Shown here: positions 1 to 42,730 of the stretch, piece by piece
How the letters are laid out: every line of letters begins with the position of its first letter
Position numbering within the stretch: the first letter of the stretch is position 1
Source of the DNA: a bacterium
Lineage (GTDB): Bacteria > Patescibacteriota > Minisyncoccia > Phycocordibacterales > UBA5272
Assembly: GCA_043765155.1 (NCBI GenBank)
Contig: JAYUJP010000001.1
Coordinates: 19,268-83,267, forward strand
Direction of reading: 5' to 3'
DNA: 64,000 bases
Translations under genes and position numbers: made by a program
Notes under the pieces: model-generated
The model's input: only the letters and a program-made list of their open reading frames with translations
What the model was told of the DNA's origin: nothing
Database searches by the model: none

Positions 1-1084
1 CCGTATACATCAGGAAGAGGACACGGCTAAGAGCGATCATGAAAAAGGAGGCTATACTCTACTTGATTTTAACCGTGCCGCAGTGCCGCTAATGGAGCTA
101 GTGACTGAGCCGATAACTTATACTAGTAAAGAAGAGGCGGCAAGTAAGTCAGCAGACTTTGGCAAGGCTTTGCAAAGGTTACTTAGAACCCTAGAAGTTA
201 GTGACGCTAATATGGACAAGGGGCAATTAAGACTTGAGGCAAATATTTCAATAACTCTAGACCCGAAAAAATTTGGTACCAAATGCGAAGTTAAAAATCT
301 TAACTCATTTAACTCGGTAGAAAAAGCCATTATCTATGAGGTTAATAGGCATACCGACATGCTAGCGAGAGGCGAGACTATAATCCAAGAGACACGCGGC
401 TGGGATGAAAACAAATTAGAAACATTTTCACAAAGGAAAAAAGAAAATGCTCATGATTATAGATATTTCCCTTGCCCTGATCTTCCTAAAATGTACCTGC
501 ATGAGATGTTCGACCTAGAGCAGATGAAAAAGGATTTGCCAGAATTACCCGAGGCAAAGAAGCTTAGATTAGAATCATATGGTATTAATGAAAAGCAAGT
601 AACTGGATTGCTTGATGATATAGAGATGGGTAAATATTATGACTCTGCCTGTGCTGATTTAAATAATACAGAAGATAAGAAAACTTTGGCTAATTATCTA
701 CTTGGTGATGCGGCTGGTTTTATGTCAAAAGATACTAACCTAAAGTTACCAGCTCCTAATAATCTTGCAAAGATAATTCTAATGATATCTGAGAGTAAGC
801 TGTCGAGCCGCGGAGCAAAAGATTTACTGCTCAATATAATGGGTGATGACGTAGCTGATTCAGAATTAGAAACTCGCGCAAAAGATTTGGGACTAATACA
901 AAATTCTGACCCAGAAGCTACGAAAAACATAGTGATGAAAGTTATAGAGCAAGATGCAGAAAAATGGGCTGAGTACAAAGCTGGAGCTGACAAGCTTGAA
1001 ATGTACTTTGTGGGTAAATGCATGAAAGAGGCAGCCGGCAGCGGTAATCCAAAAGTCTTTATAGAGATAATAAAAAGTATCTAG
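1..1084 (+). CDS. gatB: Asp/Glu-tRNA(Asn/Gln) amidotransferase subunit B, C-terminal part. The gene starts upstream of the window: the frame is open from position 2 and reads ...YTLLDFNRAAVPLMELV.
   Basis: It has the GatB motifs LLDFNRAxVPLxE and LEANISI/RxEANISI and a C-terminal GatB/YqeY-like domain. The ORF track ORF at 83..1084 is in the same frame. Confidence 0.85.
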   Translation, partial: RIHQEEDTAKSDHEKGGYTLLDFNRAAVPLMELVTEPITYTSKEEAASKSADFGKALQRLLRTLEVSDANMDKGQLRLEANISITLDPKKFGTKCEVKNLNSFNSVEKAIIYEVNRHTDMLARGETIIQETRGWDENKLETFSQRKKENAHDYRYFPCPDLPKMYLHEMFDLEQMKKDLPELPEAKKLRLESYGINEKQVTGLLDDIEMGKYYDSACADLNNTEDKKTLANYLLGDAAGFMSKDTNLKLPAPNNLAKIILMISESKLSSRGAKDLLLNIMGDDVADSELETRAKDLGLIQNSDPEATKNIVMKVIEQDAEKWAEYKAGADKLEMYFVGKCMKEAAGSGNPKVFIEIIKSI

Positions 1085-2571: not shown

Positions 2572-3072
2572 TTATCTTTCTATATTCTCCACTCTTTTGG
2601 CATGCTTACCCCCAGCAAAATCTGTTGAGAAAAATATCTCTATAGCTTTTTTGCATTCATCTATATCTAAAAATCTAGCCCCAAAAGAGATACTGTTGGC
2701 ATTGTTATGCTCGCGGCCTAATTTTATAATATCAAGATTACCGCCATAATATGTAGTACATCTAACTCCTTTGTACCTATTCATGACTATCGCTTCGCCC
2801 TCTCCGCTACCGCCAAATACAAAGGCTACACTTAGAATGTCGTTCTCAATATCATCAGCGAGTGCCCCGCCAGCTTTGTGTATATAATCAGTATAATCAT
2901 CAAGCTCATTATATACATGTGAGCCCATATCTATAATTTCAAAATTAGACCCCCTATTTTCACTTTTAAATTCACCCTCAAGATATTTCTTAATTTCACT
3001 TTTCATCTCAAGTCCCGCATGATCACAGGCCAGATATATATTTTGTATATTATTTGAATTTAAATTATGCAT
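2572..3072 (-). CDS. rpiB: Ribose-5-phosphate isomerase B (RpiB/LacAB family).
   Basis: N-terminal LACDHAG motif and a conserved central GGSGxGE-like motif (FGGSGEGEAI). The length of 166 aa is typical. Confidence 0.8.
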   Translation of the reverse strand: MHNLNSNNIQNIYLACDHAGLEMKSEIKKYLEGEFKSENRGSNFEIIDMGSHVYNELDDYTDYIHKAGGALADDIENDILSVAFVFGGSGEGEAIVMNRYKGVRCTTYYGGNLDIIKLGREHNNANSISFGARFLDIDECKKAIEIFFSTDFAGGKHAKRVENIER

Positions 3073-3120
3073 ATCTTTTATTTACTACTTATCAACTTGA
3101 TTCTAATTATTTTAAAATAT

Positions 3121-4305
3121 TTATAATAACTTAGCGACTTTTTCTGCATGCATAACAAGGGTATTAGTATATCCCATCTCATTATCATACCAGCCCAAAA
3201 CTTTTACTAGGTTACCGCCAACTACGCGTGTCATCTTGAGATCCGCGATGCTGGCAAAATGTGATCCCTGTATATCACTACTCACTAGCTCCTCATCACT
3301 AGCATCAAAAATATTCTTCCATTTATCCTGCTTTGCAGCATCTCTTAAGATATTATTAATCTCCTCTGTACTAGTTTCCCTTTTGGCGATAAAGGTAATA
3401 TCAACAATGGACCCCGCTGCTACCGGTACACGCATCGCTATACCGTCAAATCTGCCGTCCAGCTGCGTAAATACCTTACCCACAGCAATAGCAGCCCCAG
3501 TGCTACTTGGTACTATATTCTGCGCTCCTGCTCTACCCTCTCTATAATCTTTTTTATTTGGACCGTCTACAATAGACTGGCTTGCTGTATAGGCATGCAC
3601 AGTATTAAGCATTGCCTTTTCTATACCAACAGTAGCGTCGAGTATGGCGATAAGCGGTGATGAGGCATTAGTGGTGCATGAGGCATTAGACGTTATGTCA
3701 CATACGCTAAGCTTGTTTTCGTTTACAGACATGAGCACAGTCTCGCCCATAACTGACTTATCCTCGCCTGCCTTGGCCGGAGCCGAGATTATCACCCTTT
3801 TCGCTCCGCAGATGATATGAACTTTTGCCTTGTCATAACTTGTAAATAGTCCAGTGCTCTCGATAACAATATCAATATTCAAGTCCTTCCAAGGTAGCAG
3901 TAATGGATCTCTCTGTGACAGGAATTTAATTTTCTGGCTACTATCTTTTGTTTTTTTGTCAGGGCTTGCATTTACTTCTACCTTACTTGCGCCGCCTTCG
4001 GCGGCGCTGCTCTTAATTATTAGATATTTCTCCGTCTCACTCACCTCTTCTATCTCCACCTCAAAATTACTCCTCTTATATACTGTGTCATACTTAAGCA
4101 GGTAGGCCATATTATGTATATCACCTAGGTCATTCACAGCGACAACTTCAAAGTTTTCATTTGCTAATGACATTTTTAAAAATGCTCGGCCTATACGCCC
4201 AAATCCGTTGATAGCAACTCTTTTTTTATCTTGAGTTTTTATTTCTTCTTTATTTTCTTCCCCCATAATTAGCGCACTATTTTTTATACTATTTAAAATA
4301 TTCAT
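3121..4305 (-). CDS. gap: Glyceraldehyde-3-phosphate dehydrogenase with a lineage-specific insertion of about 45 aa and an N-terminal extension.
   Basis: NAD-binding motif INGFGRIGR, catalytic-Cys motif ASCTTNA, and a C-terminal WYDNE motif. Confidence 0.85.
   Translation of the reverse strand: MNILNSIKNSALIMGEENKEEIKTQDKKRVAINGFGRIGRAFLKMSLANENFEVVAVNDLGDIHNMAYLLKYDTVYKRSNFEVEIEEVSETEKYLIIKSSAAEGGASKVEVNASPDKKTKDSSQKIKFLSQRDPLLLPWKDLNIDIVIESTGLFTSYDKAKVHIICGAKRVIISAPAKAGEDKSVMGETVLMSVNENKLSVCDITSNASCTTNASSPLIAILDATVGIEKAMLNTVHAYTASQSIVDGPNKKDYREGRAGAQNIVPSSTGAAIAVGKVFTQLDGRFDGIAMRVPVAAGSIVDITFIAKRETSTEEINNILRDAAKQDKWKNIFDASDEELVSSDIQGSHFASIADLKMTRVVGGNLVKVLGWYDNEMGYTNTLVMHAEKVAKLL
3989..4007. 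repeat. Perfect GC-rich palindrome (GCGCCGCC-ttcg-GCGGCGC) embedded in frame inside the gap-specific insertion. It resembles the terminator stems of this genome.
   Basis: It has the same stem family as the intergenic terminators at 1.1, 2.5, 9.0, 11.0 and 50.3 kb. It encodes AAEGGAS within gap. Confidence 0.5.
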
Positions 4306-4423
4306 ATTTTTTACTTAGTTATATTATAGCAGAAATTTAACTTAAAATATCACAAATAAAAACCTTTTCCACAAGATAATAAAAGCTAATAATATTATAT
4401 GGATCTTATGGAATATATTATTA

Positions 4424-5020
4424 TTAATTTATGTATATTATTTCTTCTCTCAGTGCTCCTAAAGGCGCTTCAACATGAACTATTTTTTGAATCATTTTGT
4501 ACTTTAAAGCTTCTTGGGCCGATATTGTTGTGCCAGTTTCCATCATAGATTTAACTTTTTTAAGTGATATATTTGATTTTTCAGATACAAAATATGCTAT
4601 TCTGCTATTGTTTGTTTTTATAGCTGACAACTGATCTTTAAGAGCTTTTTCATCAAAATTACCAGAAACAGAAGCTCCGTGAAGATAAAATTTTGCATAA
4701 GACTCAGCGGTTCTTTCTTTAGCAGACATGTATATAACATTAGCTATAGAATCTATATGGTTTGTAGCATGTATAGCTATGGGAATTCTAGAATTTTGTA
4801 TTATTGAAGCAATAAGAAATCCGTCATATATACTACCTCCAAGTGAAGAAAATATTATTACAATTTTACTAACTGCGATACCTTCTATATTAATACTTTG
4901 AATAGCATTTACTAACCTTAATGTTGATGGCTGATCTATATCAGAAAGCTGAGTGTAGAACTCGTCATTCTTTGCTTTGTTAGCACTACGAAGGTTTTTA
5001 TTTGAAGATTTACTTTGCAT
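4424..5020 (-). CDS. ClpP/crotonase-fold serine-peptidase-like protein (peptidase S14-like) with a divergent active-site region.
   Basis: FSSLGGSIYDGFLI aligns with ClpP NSPGGxITAGMAIYD. The Ser and His regions are only partly conserved (HIDSIA, FYLHGAS). Confidence 0.45.
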   Translation of the reverse strand: MQSKSSNKNLRSANKAKNDEFYTQLSDIDQPSTLRLVNAIQSINIEGIAVSKIVIIFSSLGGSIYDGFLIASIIQNSRIPIAIHATNHIDSIANVIYMSAKERTAESYAKFYLHGASVSGNFDEKALKDQLSAIKTNNSRIAYFVSEKSNISLKKVKSMMETGTTISAQEALKYKMIQKIVHVEAPLGALREEIIYIN

Positions 5021-7648: not shown

Positions 7649-8953
7649 TTAATTACTATTTTTAATTTCTAATTTATTTTTCTTTAAAAAATCTAATCTA
7701 CTCAAAATTACAAGCAAAATAACCTGAGAAATACTGCTCATAAGATAGGCTTTTGCCAAAAAAGTATAGTCATAGCCCATCTTATAAAAATAAGTTAGTG
7801 ATACGCACAATATGGCAAAAGAAAAGACTTGTATCATGGTTATAAGCTTAACCCTATGCATGGCCATCATGGCCCTAGCATAATACTGTTCCAAATTTAA
7901 AAAAGGTATGGCGAGTATAAGTATGTAAAACAGCTCTAGCACTTGCTTATTGTCATTATATATAATCTTTACTATAAATGGTGCAAACACAAAAGCAAGC
8001 ACGCAGAATAAAATAGAAAATACAAATATCTCAATAGTATTTTTCTTAACTTCTTTTTTAAGTTTTTCATTTTCTCCTTTTTCAAAATATTCAGAAAGTA
8101 TGGGGAAGCTAGCAACCGAGTAACTTGTCGCAAAAAACTGTACCGCCATATTAACAAGATTAGTCGCAAAAGTAAAAACTGATATAACTCCTACCCCCAA
8201 AAATCCTGCAAATATAGTAATTATAAATTGCTTGAGGCTCAGTATAATAAAAGCTGCGCTACGCCATAACGCAGTAGGTGCTATATTTTTTATATAAGAA
8301 AAGTTAAAGTATACTAAATTTATATCTATCTTATTCTTAAATATAAAAATAGAATTAATAAAAAGATGCATCAGAGCTCCAAGTAATACTCCATATGCTA
8401 GGCCATACACACCATAATTTTTGTAAAAGAAAATAATACCTATTATAATACCAGCATTATAAAACACTGGCGCCATGGCATAATACAAAAAGTTTTTGTA
8501 AGTCTGAGCCACGCATACTAACAAGTTAGAGATTCCTAGCATTATAGGCTGTATTAACATTATCTTGGACAAGTGTGAAAGAGTGGCGAGATTCTCAGCT
8601 GAAAAAGCGGGGAATAATTTGTGTAAAAATAAGTCGAGAGTGAGTATTATAATAATAGAAAATAAAGTCATGGCACCATTAAAAAACACAAATAGTGAAG
8701 CTAACTTTTTCTCAAATTCCGCCTTATCATTTTTGACAAGTGATGAAGTTAAAAATGGCACCACGATAGTTATACCCACAAAAGATACAAATATAGCCAT
8801 TATGAGATCTGGTATTTTAAAGCTGGCATTATAAATATCTAAAAGTGCGCCCACCCCAACAATAGATATAAGTAGCTTATCACGTAGCACCCCAAGTGCC
8901 TGCGAGATAATAGTAAAAAAGGCTATTATAAATGTATTTTTGTAGAGATTCAT
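7649..8953 (-). CDS. murJ: Lipid II flippase MurJ/MviN-family membrane protein (short form, 434 aa).
   Basis: N-terminal ALGxxRDxLxxxxxGxGxxxDxYxxAFKIP motif and about 12 TM helices. Confidence 0.65.
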   Translation of the reverse strand: MNLYKNTFIIAFFTIISQALGVLRDKLLISIVGVGALLDIYNASFKIPDLIMAIFVSFVGITIVVPFLTSSLVKNDKAEFEKKLASLFVFFNGAMTLFSIIIILTLDLFLHKLFPAFSAENLATLSHLSKIMLIQPIMLGISNLLVCVAQTYKNFLYYAMAPVFYNAGIIIGIIFFYKNYGVYGLAYGVLLGALMHLFINSIFIFKNKIDINLVYFNFSYIKNIAPTALWRSAAFIILSLKQFIITIFAGFLGVGVISVFTFATNLVNMAVQFFATSYSVASFPILSEYFEKGENEKLKKEVKKNTIEIFVFSILFCVLAFVFAPFIVKIIYNDNKQVLELFYILILAIPFLNLEQYYARAMMAMHRVKLITMIQVFSFAILCVSLTYFYKMGYDYTFLAKAYLMSSISQVILLVILSRLDFLKKNKLEIKNSN

Positions 8954-8995
8954 ACTTAAAATTAATTCTAATATATATTATATCATAAAATATTA

Positions 8996-9040
8996 ACAGG
9001 CGCCCGCTTCGCGGGCGCCTGTTAGGGATTTATTTGTTTT
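8996..9040. terminator. Intrinsic terminator hairpin (AACAGGCGCCCGC-ttcg-GCGGGCGCCTGTT) downstream of the ABC exporter gene on the minus strand.
   Basis: Perfect 13-bp GC stem. Confidence 0.5.
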
Positions 9041-9064
9041 CGTTTTTATTTATAATATACTTTT

Positions 9065-10858
9065 TCACTTCAGCTCCTGATGTTGTATCAGGTCTTGATA
9101 ATGACTAGAACTTTCTAATAATTCCAAGTGGGTGCCGTTCGCTACTACTTTCCCCTTGTCCATGACAAATATAATATCACTATCAATTATTGTTGATAAC
9201 CTGTGGGCGATGATAATAGTTGTTCTGCCCTTGCTCACATTATCTATCGCCTCTTTTATATACTTTTCATTTACAGTATCGAGTGAGCTCGTCGCCTCGT
9301 CAAATATAAGTATAGACGGATTTTTAATTATAGCCCTAGCTATACCTATACGCTGACGCTCACCGCCTGAGAGCTTGATGCTGCGCTCGCCTATTTCTGT
9401 CTCAAATTTTCGTACGCCAAGCCTATGATAAAATTCATCGATACGTGCCAGCTTTGATATTTCTTCTATCTTAGAATCTATAACTTGTTCTTTTTCCAAT
9501 TCTTTTAAAACTTTTTCGTCCACTCCAAATAAAATATTATTTTTGACAGTGTCGTCAAAGAGGTCAACATGTTGCTCTACATATCCTATATGTTTACGCA
9601 GATCACCCGCGTCTATGTCTTTTAACTCTACACTATTTATTTTTATCCCAGAATAATTCTCTCCCTCTTCACTTTTATTATTTAGATTATTATAATCATA
9701 AGCTCTGAGTAGTAACCTCGTAATGGTAGTCTTACCTGATCCAGAGTGTCCGACAAAAGCAACCTTACTACCTTGTGGTATTTTTATATTTATATTATTA
9801 AGTACATTACCTTCACTCTTTGGATATTTAAAACTCAAATTTTCAAACACTATATCCCCGTCGACAAATTTTGTATCGCTCTCCTCCTGAAAATCTGGCT
9901 CCTTATCAATAATTTCTAAGTATTTATCCAGCTCAACAAAACGAAGAGGTATTTGCCTCAAAGCTTTGATAACAGAAAAAATATTATTATATGCATCATT
10001 AATCCACATCCATATAGCATAGATGGCACCAATGGTTAAGTTGCCAAGAGAGGCTAAAAATATTATAAGTATTGTACTGCCAGTCTTACTGACAGAAAAA
10101 ATAAACCATCTTTTATGTGCATGTGAGACACTTTTTGTCCATGTAAAAATTTTATAATCTATAAAAACTTCTCTATTTTTAAGATATTTTTTAAGATAAA
10201 CTTTTTCAACGGCTAAGTTTTTCACTAATAGAAGATGCTGAAATATCTCTGATCTTATTTTTCTTTGCGTATCCCAATTATCCATATCTTTTTTAATAAA
10301 AGGCCTATGATATCTAGCAAAATAGCCGCTCCACAAAATAACCAGCATTAATGTCCCCGCACACCAAGCAGCTATAGTAACTGAATAAAAAGATATAGCA
10401 GCCAAAGAAAAGATTATTTGTGTAAAAGTTGGAAAAATACTTAAAATAAAGCTTGTTACTATATTTTGCACTGCACTCTCGCCTCTGTTAACGACTTGTA
10501 ATTTTATCGCACTATGATCTTCTACATATTGACTAGGGTTTAGTTTAAAAATATTTTTAAAAGAATATTCCTCAAGATGTTGCTGTATTCTAAAATCTAA
10601 ATTATCTTGTGCGTGTTTATCTGAAAAATAACTCACTATAATTAGTATACCCTGAATCACAAGCCATGAAAATATAAAATAATAAGCTAAATTAAAATCC
10701 TTGTTAACAATTTTGTCTAAAATTTTAGAAATTATAAAAACCATTAAGACACCGATTGCTTGCTGAAATATAGTAGAAATTAATTGTATATAAAAATCTT
10801 TATGGAAAGGCTTTAAAAGTTTCCACAATCGCCAAGTGGTTATAAGGTATTTTTGCAT
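9065..10858 (-). CDS. ABC exporter with fused permease and ATPase, MsbA/multidrug-exporter type.
   Basis: Six-TM domain followed by Walker A GHSGSGKTT, the ABC signature LSGGERQR and Walker B ILIFDEATS. Confidence 0.85.
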   Translation of the reverse strand: MQKYLITTWRLWKLLKPFHKDFYIQLISTIFQQAIGVLMVFIISKILDKIVNKDFNLAYYFIFSWLVIQGILIIVSYFSDKHAQDNLDFRIQQHLEEYSFKNIFKLNPSQYVEDHSAIKLQVVNRGESAVQNIVTSFILSIFPTFTQIIFSLAAISFYSVTIAAWCAGTLMLVILWSGYFARYHRPFIKKDMDNWDTQRKIRSEIFQHLLLVKNLAVEKVYLKKYLKNREVFIDYKIFTWTKSVSHAHKRWFIFSVSKTGSTILIIFLASLGNLTIGAIYAIWMWINDAYNNIFSVIKALRQIPLRFVELDKYLEIIDKEPDFQEESDTKFVDGDIVFENLSFKYPKSEGNVLNNINIKIPQGSKVAFVGHSGSGKTTITRLLLRAYDYNNLNNKSEEGENYSGIKINSVELKDIDAGDLRKHIGYVEQHVDLFDDTVKNNILFGVDEKVLKELEKEQVIDSKIEEISKLARIDEFYHRLGVRKFETEIGERSIKLSGGERQRIGIARAIIKNPSILIFDEATSSLDTVNEKYIKEAIDNVSKGRTTIIIAHRLSTIIDSDIIFVMDKGKVVANGTHLELLESSSHYQDLIQHQELK

Positions 10859-10961
10859 AATTATATAATATTATAACACAAAACAAAAACTTACTTGTTT
10901 TCGTTTTTTATTCAGTCTTTAGATTGTCAGATTTGGATATATTTCTAATGCTAGTCAATTA

Positions 10962-10988
10962 AAAAGCGGCGCCATAGGCGCCGCTTTT
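10962..10988. terminator. Intrinsic terminator hairpin (AAAAGCGGCGCC-ata-GGCGCCGCTTTT) at the 3' end of rnpB.
   Basis: Perfect palindrome flanked by an A-tract and a T-tract. Confidence 0.6.
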
Positions 10989-10991
10989 CTC

Positions 10992-11312
10992 ATCTGTCCC
11001 ATAAGCCGAATTCTGTTCTGCGTCTTTTATAAAACACATACGTAGATATTTATCTTGCTTGTATGTTACCATACAAATCTTTGCGACGACTCTGGCATAC
11101 AATAAAGTTACCAGCACGGTCTTGCACATATGTAAGTATTTAGCCGTTTCAGCCTAACTAAATAGGATCGTTTCTGTTCGCAACTCGCGTGTTACCACGT
11201 ATGGGTGTTACCCATTACACTTGTATACAATAAGTAAAACTATGTGTTCGGACTTTCCTCACTACCTAAAATAAATTTTAAGCTAGCGCATCTACTTGTT
11301 ACAGCTTATATA
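10992..11312 (-). ncRNA. rnpB: RNase P RNA, bacterial type A-like, compact at about 320 nt.
   Basis: The minus strand contains GAGGAAAGUCCGAACAC (P4 5' strand). It contains GGGUAACACCCAUACGUGGUAACACGCGAGUUGCGAACAGAAACGAUCC and GUGCAAGACCGUGCUGGUAAC. Its 3' end, ACAGAAUUCGGCUUAUGGGACAGAUGAG, matches E. coli ...ACAGAACCCGGCUUAUCGGUCAGUUUCACCU. The 5' AUAAGC pairs with the 3' GCUUAU to form P1. Confidence 0.75.
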
Positions 11313-11370
11313 ATATAGCATATATCAAGATAAAATAAAATACACTAATCACTTTCAAAAGACAATAAAA

Positions 11371-11994
11371 TTAAAAGCTCACCTCGTCTCCGACTTTTAT
11401 ATTTAAGTCTTTTACTTTGCCAGAATTAATCTCTAAAACATATTTTGCTGGATTTTTATTACTCACAGTATTTGGGTAACTAGAAACTTTTACATTTTCA
11501 AATATATCACTTATTATTTTTCTAGTTTTTACTTCTCCTGTTACGTTATCTTTTACCATCTCTTCTTTTATGTACAAAATATCAAGATTATAATTCATAT
11601 CCTTCATCCAAAAGCTATAAATATCTTCTGTATCAAAAATAAATAACATAGCACATTTATCACATAAACTTTTTGTATTGCTGAGTCCATTTCTCCTAGA
11701 CTCATTTGTATCTGCTATTTTTAAATTAAAATTAGTAATAACTTTGTTGTCTTGTTGTGAAATTATATTTAAATTTTTATCATAAGAATATTCTATATAT
11801 TTTTTACTCATACTATTATCTTTATTTTTATTTATATCTAGATGAGCTAAATTATAATACACACCAATAATTATAAACAAAGTGATAACAGCGAAAAATA
11901 AAGACTGTAAAGAATTAGCTTTAGAAATATTTCTTATTTTTGACTCTTCTATTTTTGATGCAATCTCTTGATTATTATCCATGTTTGTTTTCAT
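11371..11994 (-). CDS. DUF192-domain protein (COG1430-like), membrane-anchored.
   Basis: N-terminal TM anchor. The C-terminal region has the DUF192-like pattern (LFIFDTEDIYSFWMKDMNYNLDILYI). Confidence 0.5.
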   Translation of the reverse strand: MKTNMDNNQEIASKIEESKIRNISKANSLQSLFFAVITLFIIIGVYYNLAHLDINKNKDNSMSKKYIEYSYDKNLNIISQQDNKVITNFNLKIADTNESRRNGLSNTKSLCDKCAMLFIFDTEDIYSFWMKDMNYNLDILYIKEEMVKDNVTGEVKTRKIISDIFENVKVSSYPNTVSNKNPAKYVLEINSGKVKDLNIKVGDEVSF

Positions 11995-32708: not shown

Positions 32709-33845
32709 TTAAATATTAAGATCAATATCTGGTATATTCCCGTACCACTTTAATGCATTTTGTATTCCTTCATGCAAAGAGTCGTCTGGTAAAACAAACT
32801 TTACAAACTGAGGAGCTTGAGAAAGAATTTCATTGCCACCAGCATTTTTTTCTTGATCGTAATGGTAAGAATGATTAGTAAAGAATATAAAATTATAATC
32901 TGATTTATTATTTACTGAGATGATTTTATTTTTCCGCTTAGCATTTTTTATAATGTCTTTAACCCAAGGAACATCTTCCATTCTTGACTTATTTTCTAAT
33001 GGACTATTAATATCAATAAAAATAATATATGGCATTAAACCACACTCTTCTTTTTCCAAAGCACTTGTTAAAAGCCCCTGAATATCACCTTTTTTTGACT
33101 TATACATATCAAGTATACCTAATTGATTTAACACTCCCTTACGATGCCTACTCTTTGCTTCAACTCCTATTTTCGTGCCACTAACTTGATGCTCGGCAAT
33201 AAATTCGCAATGCTTAGCGGTTGAATTATCTATCCAAGTTATATTAAACCCCAGTCTAGCAATAACTGCAGCAATCATTATCTCATATCTGACTCCTTGA
33301 TATTCATTAGTATTTTTTAATCTTTGAATAAGCTTATCTGGGATATTAGATACATGATCAAGAGTAAAAATGTCAAAAGCTAAAGAGTAAATAGATTTTA
33401 TATAGCCATTTGGATTTGTAGAATAAACACCTTCTCTTACTTTTACACCATTAAAAATAGCAGACCCTTTAAGCTTTATAACCTCTGTAAAAGCTTTCTC
33501 TAAAAAATTAAGTTCTTCTTTTTTATATTTAATTTCATTTAACCATTCTGGTCCTAGTTTTTCTAAAAGTATAAAAATACAAAAATCACTAAATGTTTCA
33601 TGTTTATTGTCTCTTTGGTAGATTCTATTTTTAATAGCCCATATTTTTTTATCTTTGAAGATAATAGGATTAACATAGTTAACGTAAATACCAACCTCTT
33701 TTAATTTATTATCTTTAAGTTCTTTTTTTGCAAGCATTTGTAGTGCCATATGACTAATACTTTCTTTTTTCATGAGGCAACACTTTTTATATTTCTTACC
33801 ACTAAAACAGTAACATTTTTCATTTCGACCTATTTTATTATTCAT
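32709..33845 (-). CDS. SEC-C-motif (zinc-binding) protein with a putative C-terminal PD-(D/E)xK nuclease-like core.
   Basis: N-terminal NEKCYCFSGKKYKKCC is the SecA-C-terminal metal-binding motif. RYEIMIAAVIARLGFNITWID...KIGVEAKS fits E...hhhD...hExK. The nuclease call is inference. Confidence 0.45.
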   Translation of the reverse strand: MNNKIGRNEKCYCFSGKKYKKCCLMKKESISHMALQMLAKKELKDNKLKEVGIYVNYVNPIIFKDKKIWAIKNRIYQRDNKHETFSDFCIFILLEKLGPEWLNEIKYKKEELNFLEKAFTEVIKLKGSAIFNGVKVREGVYSTNPNGYIKSIYSLAFDIFTLDHVSNIPDKLIQRLKNTNEYQGVRYEIMIAAVIARLGFNITWIDNSTAKHCEFIAEHQVSGTKIGVEAKSRHRKGVLNQLGILDMYKSKKGDIQGLLTSALEKEECGLMPYIIFIDINSPLENKSRMEDVPWVKDIIKNAKRKNKIISVNNKSDYNFIFFTNHSYHYDQEKNAGGNEILSQAPQFVKFVLPDDSLHEGIQNALKWYGNIPDIDLNI

Positions 33846-33916
33846 TTTAGTTACATTACAATCTATACAATTTTTTTAAGCTAAATCCTCAACAGTATCA
33901 AAAATATTATGATTGA

Positions 33917-34648
33917 CTATTCTATTCCAAAACTTTTTTTTAATTTTGCAATATCTGCTGGATTTTCAAATTCCTTCCTTTTTTGTTCTTCTTCTGCCTT
34001 TTTAATTTCATCTCTTAGGATCTCAAAATCTTTAATCCAAGCACCTTCAATAAAAGCATCTACGGAGTTTGGGTAATACTCAGTACCCCATTCCTTCTCG
34101 GAAAGACTTTCACTTACATGCAAAACTTTTTCTTCATTAAGAAACATTTCTAGGTCTCCCCAGTAGCTGTCTTCATGGTTACCTGTTGAATGGATAAATT
34201 TATACTCTCTTCCGTTCATCATTAAAAGAATACACTCTTCTCTACTTTGCTTTTCGTCAACTTCTTTTGCCTCAGTAACTATCGTAGGCACTGAGTCTCT
34301 TGGAGTATGTCTAATCCAGCTTGGGTAATAGCGTATAGAATCGTGATATAAAGCATCAACAAGTTGTGGTATACCAGACTTCATAGCTTGATCCTTTTTC
34401 TTTTCAGCAAGGTCTCTGATTCTCTCTGCTTCACTTTGTACGGCATTATTAATCGCCTCTCCTGAAGGATAGTTTTCTTTGCAAGGCTCTTCTTTTTTAG
34501 AGATTAAGTCTTTCTTTCTGTTACGTGAAAAAATCCAACCAATAAAGATAGCTCCCCAAAAACTCCATCCATTACCAGCCTTTAAAATCCAATAAAAAAT
34601 AAAGAAGAATGCCAATGATATTGCTAACCACTTTATATTTATATTCAT
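33917..34648 (-). CDS. Hypothetical membrane protein (2 N-terminal TM plus a soluble domain).
   Basis: Hydrophobic N-terminus (LAISLAFFFIFYWIL, FWGAIFIGWIF). No family recognised. Confidence 0.4.
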   Translation of the reverse strand: MNINIKWLAISLAFFFIFYWILKAGNGWSFWGAIFIGWIFSRNRKKDLISKKEEPCKENYPSGEAINNAVQSEAERIRDLAEKKKDQAMKSGIPQLVDALYHDSIRYYPSWIRHTPRDSVPTIVTEAKEVDEKQSREECILLMMNGREYKFIHSTGNHEDSYWGDLEMFLNEEKVLHVSESLSEKEWGTEYYPNSVDAFIEGAWIKDFEILRDEIKKAEEEQKRKEFENPADIAKLKKSFGIE

Positions 34649-34790
34649 AATTATTATTCTATGTTAAAAAATAACGAAGATTTTTATATTTTACAATGCG
34701 TTATCCGTTTAATTTGGTGCTTGGACTGGCTAGTAGTCCTGACTGGCTCCGCACTTGGGACGATGTCCGAAAAGCAATTATAGAAAATAA

Positions 34791-36113
34791 TTAAATTTCA
34801 AAAAAGTAGTAAGCTGGTAAATATAGGTTATCATTTCTTTCTTCTTGAAAATTAAAGGGGTCATTTATAAAAAAAGGAGTACTCCTCATTTCTTTATACT
34901 CGTCTAAGTTTTTAGCAAATTTCAAATGAATGACTCTTGTCTTTGCGACTTTATTTTCTTCACCAAGAATATATAATATTTCGTTAGAATACCTTTTATG
35001 ATCGCCTCCTGATATTAAAATTGCTCTATTTATCTCATCGTTAGAAGAAATATATCCACTTTCAATAATGCTTTTAATACTGCTATAATTTCCTGTTTGA
35101 ATACTCTGAGGCGAATATCTTAACAATTCAACAGCAACACATATTATTGGATTTGGCTCTAGGTCTCTTAATTTTAAAGACACGTAGCTCTGATTTGCAA
35201 TCCTAAGAGCAAGTTTTAATTTACGCATAGTAAATCCAGAGTAATTTCTAAACATTGCCGATATTAGATCTTGTAATATTATTAACTGCGCTTCATTTTT
35301 TAATTCAAAAATATCAGATAAAAATCCATTCAGGTTACTAACTTTATTTTTATAAAAATGAATATAATCCATACATTTAAAGTAAACCTCCTGTGTATTA
35401 ATATTTTCGTAGCTTTGTGTAGAAACTGGAACAATTGCAATAATCTGCTTATTCAATTCTGGTGATTTTATGAATTGTTTAAATGTCTCTAAAAAATAAA
35501 ATCCTCCTTGACCAGCTCTATCTATATCTTCTAGTACAAAAATAATTTTTTTCTTATTGTTATTCTCAAGTAATTTTAGAAAAATATCTTGCATCTCAAA
35601 AACTCTTGTGGCGGGAGTTTTGTCTATAATATCTTTTGACTTAGCTCCAACTATAGCGGTTAATGTTTTTATTATTAAACCAACACTTGGTGAAATTGTA
35701 CTAATTAATTCCGCGCCTGAATTTATAATATCGCTAGTAATTCCAATATTTGTCTTTTTACTATCGTCTGAATTACCGTCTAGTTTACACTTAATCTCTT
35801 TCTCTTTCCCGAACTGTTTTGCTGTAGCTAAAATTAGACCATCCCACAACTCTCTTTTATCTGGAAACTGCCAGGCGTCAAAGTCTACCCAGTACTCTTC
35901 TTCCTTTTTATCTTCTCTTTTATTTTTTACACTTTCAATTAGACTACTTTTCCCAATACCATAATCACCCACAATACCCAAAATAACAGAATTATTAAAA
36001 GTGTCAATTTTTTGACATAATTCTGAAATTGGAATTTGATTTTCCATCCGATCTTCAGTAGAAATCTTTTCTTCTAGTAGCGAGATATTTTTAATGAAGC
36101 CTTTAGTTTGCAT
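34791..36113 (-). CDS. KAP-family P-loop NTPase.
   Basis: Walker A GDYGIGKSS is followed by the KAP-specific YWVDFDAWQFPDKRELWDGLI (FNAW...W). Walker B is KKIIFVLEDIDRA. Confidence 0.6.
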   Translation of the reverse strand: MQTKGFIKNISLLEEKISTEDRMENQIPISELCQKIDTFNNSVILGIVGDYGIGKSSLIESVKNKREDKKEEEYWVDFDAWQFPDKRELWDGLILATAKQFGKEKEIKCKLDGNSDDSKKTNIGITSDIINSGAELISTISPSVGLIIKTLTAIVGAKSKDIIDKTPATRVFEMQDIFLKLLENNNKKKIIFVLEDIDRAGQGGFYFLETFKQFIKSPELNKQIIAIVPVSTQSYENINTQEVYFKCMDYIHFYKNKVSNLNGFLSDIFELKNEAQLIILQDLISAMFRNYSGFTMRKLKLALRIANQSYVSLKLRDLEPNPIICVAVELLRYSPQSIQTGNYSSIKSIIESGYISSNDEINRAILISGGDHKRYSNEILYILGEENKVAKTRVIHLKFAKNLDEYKEMRSTPFFINDPFNFQEERNDNLYLPAYYFFEI

Positions 36114-36544: not shown

Positions 36545-37222
36545 TTATATGTTTTTAGCTTCCTGTTTTGTATCTCCGTTACAAGTATTCGCTGACCAAA
36601 AACCAAGCTTATTATTTCTAGCAAAAACTTCTGCCTCTTTATAATCTTTTTGATATTTATATGGTAGATTGTAGGTGTATTCGTGTGCGTATCCATCCCT
36701 AATCATTTTCTCTTGATAAGAAGTTCCATTTTCAAGAAAGACATATCTTAAGAGTCTATTATACTTATCTCTTTCACCTTGGCTTGGGTCTACTTCAAGA
36801 TACACTTGTTTATCCCCTAGAAGTTCTGTAGCTTTTTTAGATGCTTCTTTAGCGAAGCATTGAACTGGTTTTCTTGGGTCTTTTGTTTCAGGTGTATCAA
36901 TACCAATTAAACGAATAGTGATGGACTCACCATCAACTAATACTTTAATAGTATCCCCATCTACAACATCTAAAACTTTATAGAGTGTAGAAGTAGATGT
37001 TTTAATTTCTTTTACTTCAATCTTAGGCGTGTTTATGATGTTTTGACTAGGTATCTGGGTAGTTATTTTCTCCTCCGATGTTTTTATGATTGGCTTATTT
37101 ATAGATATATAAAAAACTAAAAAAGTTGATATAGCTAAAATAATAAGTAATAAGTCAGCTATTGTAATTTTATGTTCAAGAAATTTTTTAATCATATTAT
37201 TTTCTAGGCATTCTACCTCCAC
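36545..37222 (-). CDS. Secreted or membrane-anchored staphylococcal (micrococcal) nuclease homologue (SNase/thermonuclease).
   Basis: VVDGDTIKVLVDGESITIRLIGIDTPE...RDKYNRLLRYVFLENG...GFW contains the SNase catalytic and Ca-binding motifs. There is an N-terminal TM. Confidence 0.75.
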   Translation of the reverse strand: MEVECLENNMIKKFLEHKITIADLLLIILAISTFLVFYISINKPIIKTSEEKITTQIPSQNIINTPKIEVKEIKTSTSTLYKVLDVVDGDTIKVLVDGESITIRLIGIDTPETKDPRKPVQCFAKEASKKATELLGDKQVYLEVDPSQGERDKYNRLLRYVFLENGTSYQEKMIRDGYAHEYTYNLPYKYQKDYKEAEVFARNNKLGFWSANTCNGDTKQEAKNI

Positions 37223-37895
37223 TGTCTAGACACTCTTCTTTACTTGCATAAGCGGTAAAGTTCTGTGTTTTATAATAATAAGTTCCTCCTTTTGGATGAC
37301 ATATACCTGTTCTGCTTTTCTTTATAGGTGGATTTTCTTGGTCAATTTCTTCGACATTACCTATTTTATTGTCTGTAAGCTGCCTTGCATTCCCTACATT
37401 AGAGTTGTTATCAACTACGTTGCTTGTAGGCTTAGTTCCTGTAAGGTTAAATAATGATATGCCAAAAACAGTAATTAGTATCGCCGCAATGATAGATTTT
37501 TTACTAAATTTAGAAAGTATATTATTTACTATATCTTTTTTAATTGTATATTTCCCGTTTTCAAAAATTAAATCTTTAGGAGTTTTATTAAATTGTTTTG
37601 CAAGTATAAGATACGAAAAATACAGCTTGCATCTTTCTATTTCTTGGTCAGTTATATTTTTAAGCCCGCTAATTTCTAATCTTTCTCTGAAAGAGGCGTC
37701 ACCTCCGAACCCTCTAAACAATACCTTAAAGAGTGCTTTTATAAAAATACTTCTCCCTTTTTCTTTACTCTCTAAGCCAAAGATGGATTGCATTTCCAAT
37801 GCTCCAGCATCAATATCCGTTTCACCATTTGGTAAGTGAGTGGACTCTATTTTTTCATATATTTTTTTAGTAGTAGTTATTTTTTCTTCTTCCAT
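37197..37895 (-). CDS. Hypothetical protein with an internal TM and a Cys-containing C-terminal domain.
   Basis: ORF overlapping the SNase gene start by 26 nt, on the same strand. The C-terminus is GICHPKGGTYYYK...EECLDSGGRMP. Confidence 0.4.
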   Translation of the reverse strand: MEEEKITTTKKIYEKIESTHLPNGETDIDAGALEMQSIFGLESKEKGRSIFIKALFKVLFRGFGGDASFRERLEISGLKNITDQEIERCKLYFSYLILAKQFNKTPKDLIFENGKYTIKKDIVNNILSKFSKKSIIAAILITVFGISLFNLTGTKPTSNVVDNNSNVGNARQLTDNKIGNVEEIDQENPPIKKSRTGICHPKGGTYYYKTQNFTAYASKEECLDSGGRMPRK

Positions 37896-40266: not shown

Positions 40267-40966
40267 GTGGTGTCCTTGGTCAAAAAATGTTTTTTATTTA
40301 TTCCCAAAAAGTTGAGGAGGCAAAAAAGACCTCAACATATCAAAAAGAGATATAGTTAGCAAAATATAACCGCAGTCTCGTATTTTGTATCAGAAAACAC
40401 TATATCAGTAAAACGCAGACTACGCTAGAAACTATTACTTGATTATCTGATTTTACAAAACCAAGTTCAAACTTATACAACGGCTCCAAAAGTGATACTC
40501 TTCAGAGTAAATAGAGGGGGATTAAATAAAAAATTACATAATATGATATAAACTTACTTTCAACATGTAAGCAGGTTGCCTTTTCTTACCAACTCACCAA
40601 ATGTGATAAACAAAACAAGGAAAATATGTACAAAACAAGAAAACAACACAAATCAAAAATGCTTGAGTTAAGAGCAGATAAGTTACTAAAAAATACAATC
40701 ATTAAAAATAACACAAAATATGAAAACAAGATACGTAAAAGTTAAACAATTATACACTCAAGAATATTTAGATAGCAAATTACCTGTTATCAAATTCTAG
40801 AGTTTGTGATAAAATAAATAAGCTACACCAGATCCAAAAATAATTCATAAAATCATCTAAAATATTTGTGAATAAAAACGAGGCAACGATGCGGATCCGG
40901 TGTAGCAACTTAATCTCAAAATATCGCTGCCTCATTTTTGTTTATAAACTAACTAATAAAAATAAT

Positions 40967-42670
40967 ATGTACGAAATAAATTATGGTGAACTTAAGGCAG
41001 TGAATTATAATCGTAAATCTTCTGAGTCAGAAGAGAAGCAAATACTATCTATAGACTCTCAGATTGATGAAAATAAAAAGATAGTGAGTCAATTGGGTGT
41101 TAAAAGTCTTGATATTCTGAGGGAGTCAAAGTCTGGTAAGATGTCAAATAAGAGACCAATCTTTACTCAAATGATTAAAGATATTAAGGATGGTAAGTAC
41201 GATAGCATTGTATGTTGGAAACTTGATCGTCTGGCTCGTAACATGATTGATGGCGGGGTTGTAATGGACATGTTACAGCGTGGGACTATCAAGTGCATAA
41301 TCACTCCTAGTAAGATTTATCATAGCAGCGAGAATACTCTATTACTCTCTGTTGAGTTTGGTTCTGCTAACCAATTCGTGCGTGACCTATCTGTAAATGT
41401 TAAAAGGGGTCAGACTAAGAAAGCGTCAATTGGGTTACCTCATGGTGTCGCTACACTTGGATTTTTAAATGACAGAGCGGGAGAAAAAGGAAATAAAAAA
41501 TGGCTTGTGGACGAAGATAGGCTATGGAAAATTCAAAAACTATTTGAAATGTTTTTAACTGGTAATTACTCGGCTAGCAGACTCTATGAATATGCCATAA
41601 ATGAGCTAAAATTGACTACAGTTAAGAGGAAAAGAACTGGGGGTAACAATATAGCTTTGTCTAGAATATACGATATATTTAAAGATCCCGTGTATGCTGG
41701 ATACTTCTTTTACGATGAGCAGAGATATGAACTAGATAAAAATTTACCCAGAATAATATCAGAGGCAGAATATGAAAAAGTAAAAAGTCTCTTATCAAGA
41801 AAAAATATACCTAAAACTCAACATCATAAACCTGTATACTCTGGCTATATATCTTCTCCCCTTGGGGAATATATTGGCGGAGATATAAAAAAGCAACTTA
41901 TTTGTGATTGTAAGTTCAAATTTGCTTACTCTAAAAGAGAAACCTGTCCTAAATGTCTTGTTGAGATAAGTAAGCTGTCGAACCCAAAGTTTTTAGAATA
42001 TAGAAAGTATATAAACATAAAAAGAAAGAAAGCTAAGATCCTAGATAGAACCATAAAAGTAAAATCTATAGAAGAGTCTTCTATAGATAGTCAGCTGTCT
42101 AATCATATTGAACAGAGTTTATTTTTTGCAGACGAGGTTCTTGGGTGGGCTAAAAAATATATACATGAATTAGAAAACATAGAAATGAGAAACAAAATTC
42201 TCTTTGAGAGAAATAAAGAAAGCAGGAAAATAGAGTTATCTGATAAAAAGTCAAAAATGAGAAGCAGGCTCTATGAAAATCAAATTACTAACAGTGAGTA
42301 TGGCGAAGATCTGATTAAATTAGAAAAAGAATATTCTGATACAAAAGAAGAAATAGGCGACGCAAAGATAAACTGGATTGATAAGCTAGATAAAATTATA
42401 TCAGTAAGTAAAATTGCAAGGGACACTATCCTCAATGGAACCTATAATGAAAAAAGACAACTACTTTCAGACTTTAGTCCTAACCTAGTCTGGGATGAAG
42501 AAAAACTCTTAATTAACAATAATTATTTGATAAATAAAATTATTGTGGCCATAAAAGTCTCAAATCAAGAATTTGCAAAGTACGAACCTAATTTAAGCTT
42601 TGATATACAAGGCTTAAATGAAAAAACACCCCTTAAAAGAGATGATTTTTCTATTATGCTCCGTGAGTAG
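40967..42670 (+). CDS. Large serine recombinase with resolvase/invertase catalytic domain, recombinase domain and a C-terminal zinc-ribbon/coiled-coil. The likely start is MYEINYG. The longer ORF from 40868 is probably not translated.
   Basis: The catalytic N-terminus AVNYNRKSSESEEKQ...SIDSQ (Ser nucleophile region) and DSIVCWKLDRLARN are present. CPKC marks a zinc ribbon. The stop codon overlaps tRNA-Asn. Confidence 0.8.
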   Translation: MYEINYGELKAVNYNRKSSESEEKQILSIDSQIDENKKIVSQLGVKSLDILRESKSGKMSNKRPIFTQMIKDIKDGKYDSIVCWKLDRLARNMIDGGVVMDMLQRGTIKCIITPSKIYHSSENTLLLSVEFGSANQFVRDLSVNVKRGQTKKASIGLPHGVATLGFLNDRAGEKGNKKWLVDEDRLWKIQKLFEMFLTGNYSASRLYEYAINELKLTTVKRKRTGGNNIALSRIYDIFKDPVYAGYFFYDEQRYELDKNLPRIISEAEYEKVKSLLSRKNIPKTQHHKPVYSGYISSPLGEYIGGDIKKQLICDCKFKFAYSKRETCPKCLVEISKLSNPKFLEYRKYINIKRKKAKILDRTIKVKSIEESSIDSQLSNHIEQSLFFADEVLGWAKKYIHELENIEMRNKILFERNKESRKIELSDKKSKMRSRLYENQITNSEYGEDLIKLEKEYSDTKEEIGDAKINWIDKLDKIISVSKIARDTILNGTYNEKRQLLSDFSPNLVWDEEKLLINNNYLINKIIVAIKVSNQEFAKYEPNLSFDIQGLNEKTPLKRDDFSIMLRE

Positions 42671-42730
42671 GGATCGAACCTACGACCAATTCCTTAACAG
42701 GGAACTGCTCTACCGCTGAGCTATCACGGA
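42659..42730 (-). tRNA. tRNA-Asn (anticodon GTT).
   Basis: The minus strand reads TCCGTGATAGCTCAGCGGTAGAGCAGTTCC-CTGTTAA-GGAATTGGTCGTAGGTTCGATCCCTACTCACGGA+G. The cloverleaf has a GGTTCGATCC T-loop. The 3' 12 nt overlap the recombinase stop. Confidence 0.85.

Follow-up and report, generated by a model that had tools for sequence, protein, structure and literature searches.

The question raised by this locus is whether three neighboring genes, encoding a protein with a SEC-C zinc-binding motif (gene A), a membrane protein (gene B) and a KAP-family P-loop NTPase (gene C), form one multi-gene defense system or are separate genes that happen to stand in a row. They are located in a window of 64,000 nucleotides (nt), the whole stretch of DNA that was analyzed, on contig JAYUJP010000001.1 of a Patescibacteria genome (GenBank assembly GCA_043765155.1), where they share a putative island with a staphylococcal nuclease (SNase) homolog and a large serine recombinase. 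A preliminary description made from the sequence alone had reported three consecutive minus-strand genes, and the open reading frames (ORFs) were found exactly where it had placed them. It had also proposed that the three genes constitute a single module, and this proposal did not hold. A, B and C as a conserved multi-gene unit across lineages are not supported, and the most likely explanation is that separate candidate anti-phage genes came to stand next to each other by chance on a small mobile island, because each family occurs without the other two everywhere else examined. On balance we lean toward the view that A, B and C are evolutionarily independent and act separately as single-gene cargo.

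The co-occurrence of the three genes was analyzed by screening 172 loci (1.88 Mb) by tblastn with A, B and C, which were detected in 89, nine and 85 loci for A, B and C, respectively. Any two of them were present together only in the loci L001-L006, which are 99.7-100% identical to the window and thus represent one population. The KAP protein is known on nine contigs, of which six were examined, and all six carry the trio. The screen also covered independent loci outside this source population, 83 with an A-family gene and 79 with a C-family gene. Neither B nor C was found within ~10 kb of the A family in any of the former (0/83), and neither A nor B was found near the C family in any of the latter (0/79). 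A phmmer search of up to 10 kb on either side of 73 A-family genes recovered no relative of B or C, and no B relative was present around 78 metagenomic C-family genes, where the sole match to the A profile (18 bits) fell on the SEC-C motif of a different protein. The nearest relatives of A (44-50% identity) have no B and no C nearby. The preliminary description had itself named the lack of co-occurrence elsewhere among the outcomes that would refute it, and within the reach of these searches this is what was observed; the single module was not borne out.

Gene A is a widespread solitary gene without a conserved neighbor. Its family comprises at least 233 homologous clusters at E<=1e-3, nearly all of them full length with 370-400 amino acids (aa), and is hosted by Patescibacteria, Gammaproteobacteria, Actinomycetes, Planctomycetota, Bacillota (Paenibacillus, Cohnella), Acidobacteriota, Chlamydiota and others. 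At the 73 A-family loci obtained from a scan of one genome per species, the commonest neighbor clusters were represented only 8, 6 and 5 times, and the 125 immediate neighbors matched 115 Pfam families, none of which was matched by more than three neighbors. Five loci carried A on the same strand beside type I restriction-modification (R-M) genes (hsdS, hsdR or hsdM; L029, L041, L045, L050 and L058), while the surroundings of the closest relatives (44-50%) included a prophage-like region, a MutH-like gene with a C5 methylase, a type III R-M system (Res/Mod), an MmeI-type enzyme and an RHH/YafQ pair. Recombinases homologous to that of the window were located no more than 10 kb from A homologs at at least seven loci (L007, L018, L030, L034, L044, L055 and L063), TraG-like genes recurred near A homologs, and SNase homologs were present near A at three other loci (L021, L044 and L055). 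Locus L044, from another Patescibacteria metagenome-assembled genome, harbors an SNase homolog 47% identical to that of the window (7768-8544), an A homolog (8607-9761) and a large serine recombinase (9841-11394) contiguously on one strand, with neither a KAP gene nor B, and looks like a natural version of the window island minus C and B.

For protein C, a word-indexed search returned one non-self relative, and an exhaustive HMMER search returned 322 representatives at E<=1e-3 (105 at E<=1e-30). Nearly all of these are 390-460 aa in length, which places C in a compact KAP subfamily. The commonest immediate neighbors of this family were HSDR_N and Methylase_S, and the gene order hsdM-hsdS-KAP-hsdR with gaps of ~1-19 nt was observed in ~10 of the 67 C-family loci. 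SNase homologs were also present near C at two loci (L115 and L120). On an unrelated metagenome contig (L117), the gene for a 255-aa protein (2865-3629, plus strand) that carries SEC-C at its C-terminus (Pfam E=9e-7) lies 19 nt upstream of a C-family gene (3651-4892); this protein differs from A, so that SEC-C-tagged proteins and KAP genes meet more than once. In the PrrC/RloC-type arrangement an accessory gene is inserted into a type I R-M operon, and members of both the A and the C family elsewhere occupy a similar position, either flanked by hsdS and hsdR or adjacent to hsdS, in the same orientation as these genes. Unlike in that arrangement, no R-M gene adjoins A or C in the window, and neither protein is related in sequence to PrrC or RloC. 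A phage origin of the two families was rejected, as 2.9 million viral contigs contained no relative of C and only two, distant relatives of A.

In protein A, an N-terminal SEC-C zinc knuckle (C11, C13, C22 and C23; pattern CxCx8C[CH]) is followed first by a helical/beta region in the middle and then by a PD-(D/E)xK-like domain at the C-terminus. The SEC-C motif reported for it (CYCFSGKKYKKCC, residues 11-23) was recovered by Pfam SEC-C (PF02810) at residues 7-24 (E=6e-5, 23.3 bits versus a cut-off of 20.4), and a profile of the A family searched against PDB sequences matched the C-terminal zinc peptides of SecA (E=2.9e-9). These SEC-C peptides were its only matches, and no nuclease was among them. 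The ligands C11, C13 and C22 were retained in 39 of 39 aligned family members, with position 23 occupied by C (23 sequences) or H (16 sequences). The PADLOC matches of protein A (residues 2-40) involved only the C-termini, where SEC-C resides, of the models 'E1-E2', 'E2' and 'PDC-S12', which suggests that the SEC-C knuckle is perhaps a recurrent appendage of defense-island proteins. A PHROGs scan gave nothing informative for A, B or C, and no paper on a family joining SEC-C to a restriction-endonuclease fold was found in the literature library searched.

The preliminary description had further read an E...WID...VEAK arrangement in protein A as compatible with a PD-(D/E)xK nuclease core. This reading was probably right in kind, with the middle residue slightly off. 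Both 'ITWIDNS' and 'GVEAKSRHR' occur in the protein, and E188, E229, K231, S232, D278 and N280 were invariant in the 39 aligned sequences. D206 of 'WID' was kept in only 30 of these, compared to position 214 (in 'HCEF') with E in 38 sequences and D in the remaining one. E214, which directly precedes the second core strand, is a better candidate than D206 for the acidic residue in the middle of the putative motif. The AlphaFold2 model of protein A, with a predicted local distance difference test score (pLDDT) of 91.4 and a predicted template modeling score (pTM) of 0.88, displays the element order H182-197, E200-204, E215-219, E225-232, H256-263 and E273-278, an alpha-beta-beta-beta-alpha-beta core in which E188 is positioned in helix 1, E214 just ahead of strand 2 and E229-x-K231 in strand 3. 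In the model and the 39-sequence alignment, the core order and the placement of the acidic and ExK residues are thus those of PD-(D/E)xK enzymes.

Structural comparison pointed in the same direction without reaching statistical significance. The best Foldseek match in the PDB reached E=5.6e-3, and the top of the list consisted almost entirely of EcoRV, FokI, HindIII and EcoT38I, with Hjc (probability 0.97, 53 columns, root-mean-square deviation 3.1 A) and the DdmD nuclease domain also present. Matches in a viral structure library were restriction endonucleases, VRR-NUC, Cas4 and RecB-type nucleases with a still weak best value of E=1.2e-3, so that no structural match below E=1e-3 was obtained from either collection. 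An hhalign comparison of the A family with an alignment of HsdR N-terminal nuclease domains from the examined loci was uninformative (probability 0.2%). We therefore grade the PD-(D/E)xK nuclease fold predicted for the C-terminal domain as probable and not proven, since the fold matches are weak and the sequence profiles find no nuclease. Protein A shares its core order, its acidic/ExK placement and the frequent R-M neighborhood with EcoRV, the FokI cleavage domain, HindIII, Hjc and solitary defense nucleases. Unlike these nucleases it possesses the SEC-C knuckle and a middle region of ~150 residues, both without counterpart, and no cognate methyltransferase is conserved with it.

A close parallel to protein A in overall architecture is Rugutis, a protein of 359 aa encoded on a lactococcal plasmid, in which SEC-C is N-terminal and the fold has no match in the PDB. 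Rugutis is an antiphage system consisting of a single gene, and a phage terminase large subunit sets off its toxicity (PMC11381338, PMC13064643, PMC12184496). Both proteins are solitary, of similar size, carry SEC-C at the N-terminus, have a confidently predicted fold without a close PDB match and reside on mobile elements. The comparator was a SEC-C protein of 359 aa encoded by a plasmid of Lactococcus lactis and presumed to be the same as the published protein. Homology between this protein and the A family was rejected, as hhalign and BLASTP aligned only the 27-residue SEC-C motif. The rest of the comparator is not detectably homologous to A and lacks the E..E..ExK pattern. With only SEC-C common to both, A is an analog of Rugutis in architecture and not a homolog.

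The assignment of protein C to the KAP NTPases by the preliminary description was confirmed by Pfam KAP_NTPase (PF07693; E=2.6e-9, 37.2 bits versus a cut-off of 20) and by the characteristic motifs. These comprise a Walker A motif (GIGKSS; G52-x-G54-K55-S56), the FDAW..P..W segment (FDAWQFPDKRELW, residues 78-90) and a Walker B motif (LEDIDRA; E195-D196-I-D198-R199). The residues G52, G54, K55, S56, E195, D196, D198 and R199 as well as the FDAW..P..W segment were invariant in 41 aligned subfamily sequences, of which 37 match Pfam KAP_NTPase. Classical KAP proteins carry transmembrane helices inserted within the NTPase domain. This transmembrane insert appears not to be conserved in the C subfamily, where it is short in most members and poorly hydrophobic; in protein C itself it contains a single borderline hydrophobic segment (residues 136-158, mean hydropathy 1.57).

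KAP P-loop NTPase proteins alone confer phage resistance in a Walker B-dependent manner and were found by their linkage to small serine recombinases (PMC13552941). Protein C shares with EF_KAP and its relatives and with PifA of the F plasmid the Walker A motif, the aromatic FDAW..P..W segment and the DxDR Walker B motif, and its gene likewise stands alone on an island that is mobile or linked to a recombinase. EF_KAP differs by a 322-aa C-terminal extension (PLoS Biol 2026, PMC13552941), compared to a total length of only 440 aa for C, and the recombinase linked to C is a large rather than a small serine recombinase. Orthology to PifA was rejected, since the match to the PADLOC PifA model (E=2e-10) is confined to the N-terminal P-loop part, with 160 residues (40-199) aligning to model positions 38-193 of 720. 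The KAP-like ATPase QatA of the QatABCD system is matched by the P-loop of C as well (PADLOC E=2e-6), but orthology was rejected because the NCBIfam score is 27.3 bits versus a cut-off of 600 and only the P-loop part is involved. No QatB-, QatC- or QatD-type genes were present among the scanned ORFs of the island.

We infer NTP hydrolysis by protein C and DNA cleavage by protein A, as well as phage defense by one or the other, the latter from genomic context and the precedent of related architectures. If A and C are independent cargo, C would most likely act alone as a nucleoside triphosphate (NTP)-driven switch with its own C-terminal half as output, and A would most likely be a metal-dependent DNA endonuclease that its SEC-C knuckle and middle region could restrain or target. 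More tentatively, the A family could represent new, widespread single-protein antiphage nucleases with SEC-C as a trigger-sensing or regulatory module, perhaps as in Rugutis, a possibility to which we give somewhat less than an even chance. A bolder version is that in this lineage A, the compact KAP NTPase and the membrane protein may have been brought together to form a composite system.

Several observations weigh against separately acting defense genes as the explanation for this locus. Most A and C contexts are not recognizably defense-related, so that the defense role rests on a minority of loci, the counts of which come without a background rate. The absence of co-occurrence elsewhere may still be compatible with a lineage-specific partnership. 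Finally, the three genes are co-directional and separated by short gaps (C-B, 142 nt; B-A, 71 nt), and a consensus scan found no terminator-like site in either gap, so that co-transcription is possible.

The first of these points also favors a role outside defense, in which A would be a nuclease for element maintenance, recombination or addiction, or for nucleotide salvage together with the SNase in a reduced Patescibacteria genome, and C a housekeeping or element NTPase. The recurrence of SNase homologs near both families and of large serine recombinases and TraG-like genes near A fits this explanation. Extracellular salvage is nevertheless made unlikely by the absence of a signal peptide or membrane segment in protein A. 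Moreover, both families occur within type I R-M operons in unrelated phyla, a position typical of defense genes, and A is nearly and C wholly absent from viral contigs. Overall we regard a non-defense role as rather improbable.

The remaining alternatives depend on protein B, the 243-aa two-helix membrane protein that the preliminary description had recognized. Two N-terminal helices (~4-24 and ~27-49), the first strongly hydrophobic and the second rich in Trp and Gly, are followed by a soluble part of ~190 aa. No match to B was found in Pfam, NCBIfam or PHROGs, only two non-self homologs (68% and 58% identity) were present in 5.8 billion clusters, and the AlphaFold2 model built from three sequences is unreliable (pLDDT 45). 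The nucleotide homology of gene B to both of these copies ends at the gene borders. The 68%-identical homolog (L012, 128-862) is followed after 85 nt by a 350-aa RelA_SpoT-domain gene (947-1996) and there is no SEC-C/nuclease gene at that site. The 58%-identical homolog (L014) has a 106-aa ORF before it and a convergent gene after it, with no KAP gene within 890 nt upstream and no co-directional gene downstream. The 106-aa protein (497-817, plus strand) resembles by eye the DUF559 or Vsr-like small endonuclease domains (IAIEIDG..H) and is a candidate only.

A lineage-specific three-gene system, in which the KAP protein would sense or switch, the membrane protein anchor or relay and the SEC-C/PD-(D/E)xK protein serve as nuclease effector, would account for the closely spaced, co-directional genes and for an arrangement that is stable in six contigs from several samples. 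The SEC-C protein gene immediately upstream of a C-family KAP gene on L117 would agree with it, and the RelA_SpoT-domain gene after the L012 homolog of B is readable as effector swapping. The six contigs are, however, a single population, no second component was present at any of the 83 and 79 independent loci or around the closest relatives, and the A and C families each occur alone inside R-M operons. The L014 homolog of B has no suitable KAP or downstream gene, and the SNase-A-recombinase arrangement of L044 lacks both C and B. Taken together, a three-gene system of this kind appears quite unlikely. The least likely alternative, that B supplies in trans the membrane anchor which classical KAP proteins carry as an insert while A is independent, draws on the short, poorly hydrophobic insert of the compact subfamily and on the N-terminal helices of B encoded 142 nt downstream of C, but finds no B homolog beside 79 other C-family genes, adjacent co-directional membrane proteins at only ~12-15 of 67 C loci and from no common family, and no upstream KAP gene at L014, the informative B context. 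The idea that the KAP subfamily has in B a conserved partner at the membrane was accordingly rejected.

Separately acting cargo genes fit the setting of the locus, and the defense or mobile-island surroundings suggested in the preliminary description are plausible. We read ~32.6-42.7 kb of the window (~10 kb) as an integrative island bounded by the recombinase and a tRNA-Asn gene (Table 1), which overlaps the 3' end of the recombinase gene by 13 nt. The G+C content is 0.27-0.30 over 33-41 kb compared to 0.32-0.36 in the flanks and ~32% for the window, and the named relatives closest to the window proteins belong to Candidatus Paceibacterota and other Patescibacteria. No att-type direct repeat was found at either end of the island, where only AT-rich chance repeats came up, and promoter-like sites in the consensus scan did not exceed expectation (20 versus 23.9 expected from shuffling). 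The gap between C and B contains a ~55-nt stretch with a G+C content far above its surroundings (cggacatcgtcccaagtgcggagccagtcaggactactagccagtccaagcacc, 34700-34760, minus strand).

Table 1. Features of the putative island and their positions in the window
Feature	Position	Strand	Basis
Gene A, 378-aa SEC-C and PD-(D/E)xK-like protein	32709-33845	-	Pfam SEC-C, alignment, AlphaFold2, Foldseek
Gene B, orphan membrane protein, 243 aa	33917-34648	-	no Pfam/NCBIfam/PHROGs match
Gene C, compact KAP-family P-loop NTPase, 440 aa	34791-36113	-	Pfam KAP_NTPase
SNase (staphylococcal nuclease) homolog, membrane-anchored	36545-37222	-	Pfam SNase E=3e-24; NCBIfam NucI-like; PADLOC
Large serine recombinase, far end of island	40868-42670	+	Pfam Resolvase and Recombinase
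tRNA-Asn, probable island boundary	42658-42730	-	ARAGORN, Rfam

The SNase gene, which had been noted after a gap of ~430 bp, lies 431 nt upstream of gene C. Its product has a hydrophobic N-terminal helix. The PADLOC candidate model 'C3a212 SNc+LTD' is matched strongly (E=2.7e-45) but over its SNase part only (positions 6-182 of 279). On its upstream side the SNase gene overlaps by 26 nt with a gene for a 232-aa protein (37197-37895, minus strand), the Cys-containing C-terminal 50 residues of which (182-232) match phrog_37565 (E=1.3e-14). A segment 48% identical to this C-terminus over 52 residues is present in L007, close to an A homolog and a serine recombinase.

Had the three genes belonged together as proposed, they would constitute a new immune system of several genes; the evidence points instead to an ordinary defense or cargo island, and the novelty lies in two uncharacterized solitary families and not in a new system. 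The family joining SEC-C to a nuclease-like domain is broadly distributed and recurs beside R-M genes, and none of the versions of Pfam, NCBIfam, PADLOC and PHROGs consulted describes this domain, while the compact KAP subfamily is repeatedly wedged between hsdS and hsdR. Members of both families could be screened at low cost, as single genes, by phage challenge. Rugutis and several candidate proteins in PADLOC also have the SEC-C knuckle, which may be a module that recurs in immune proteins.

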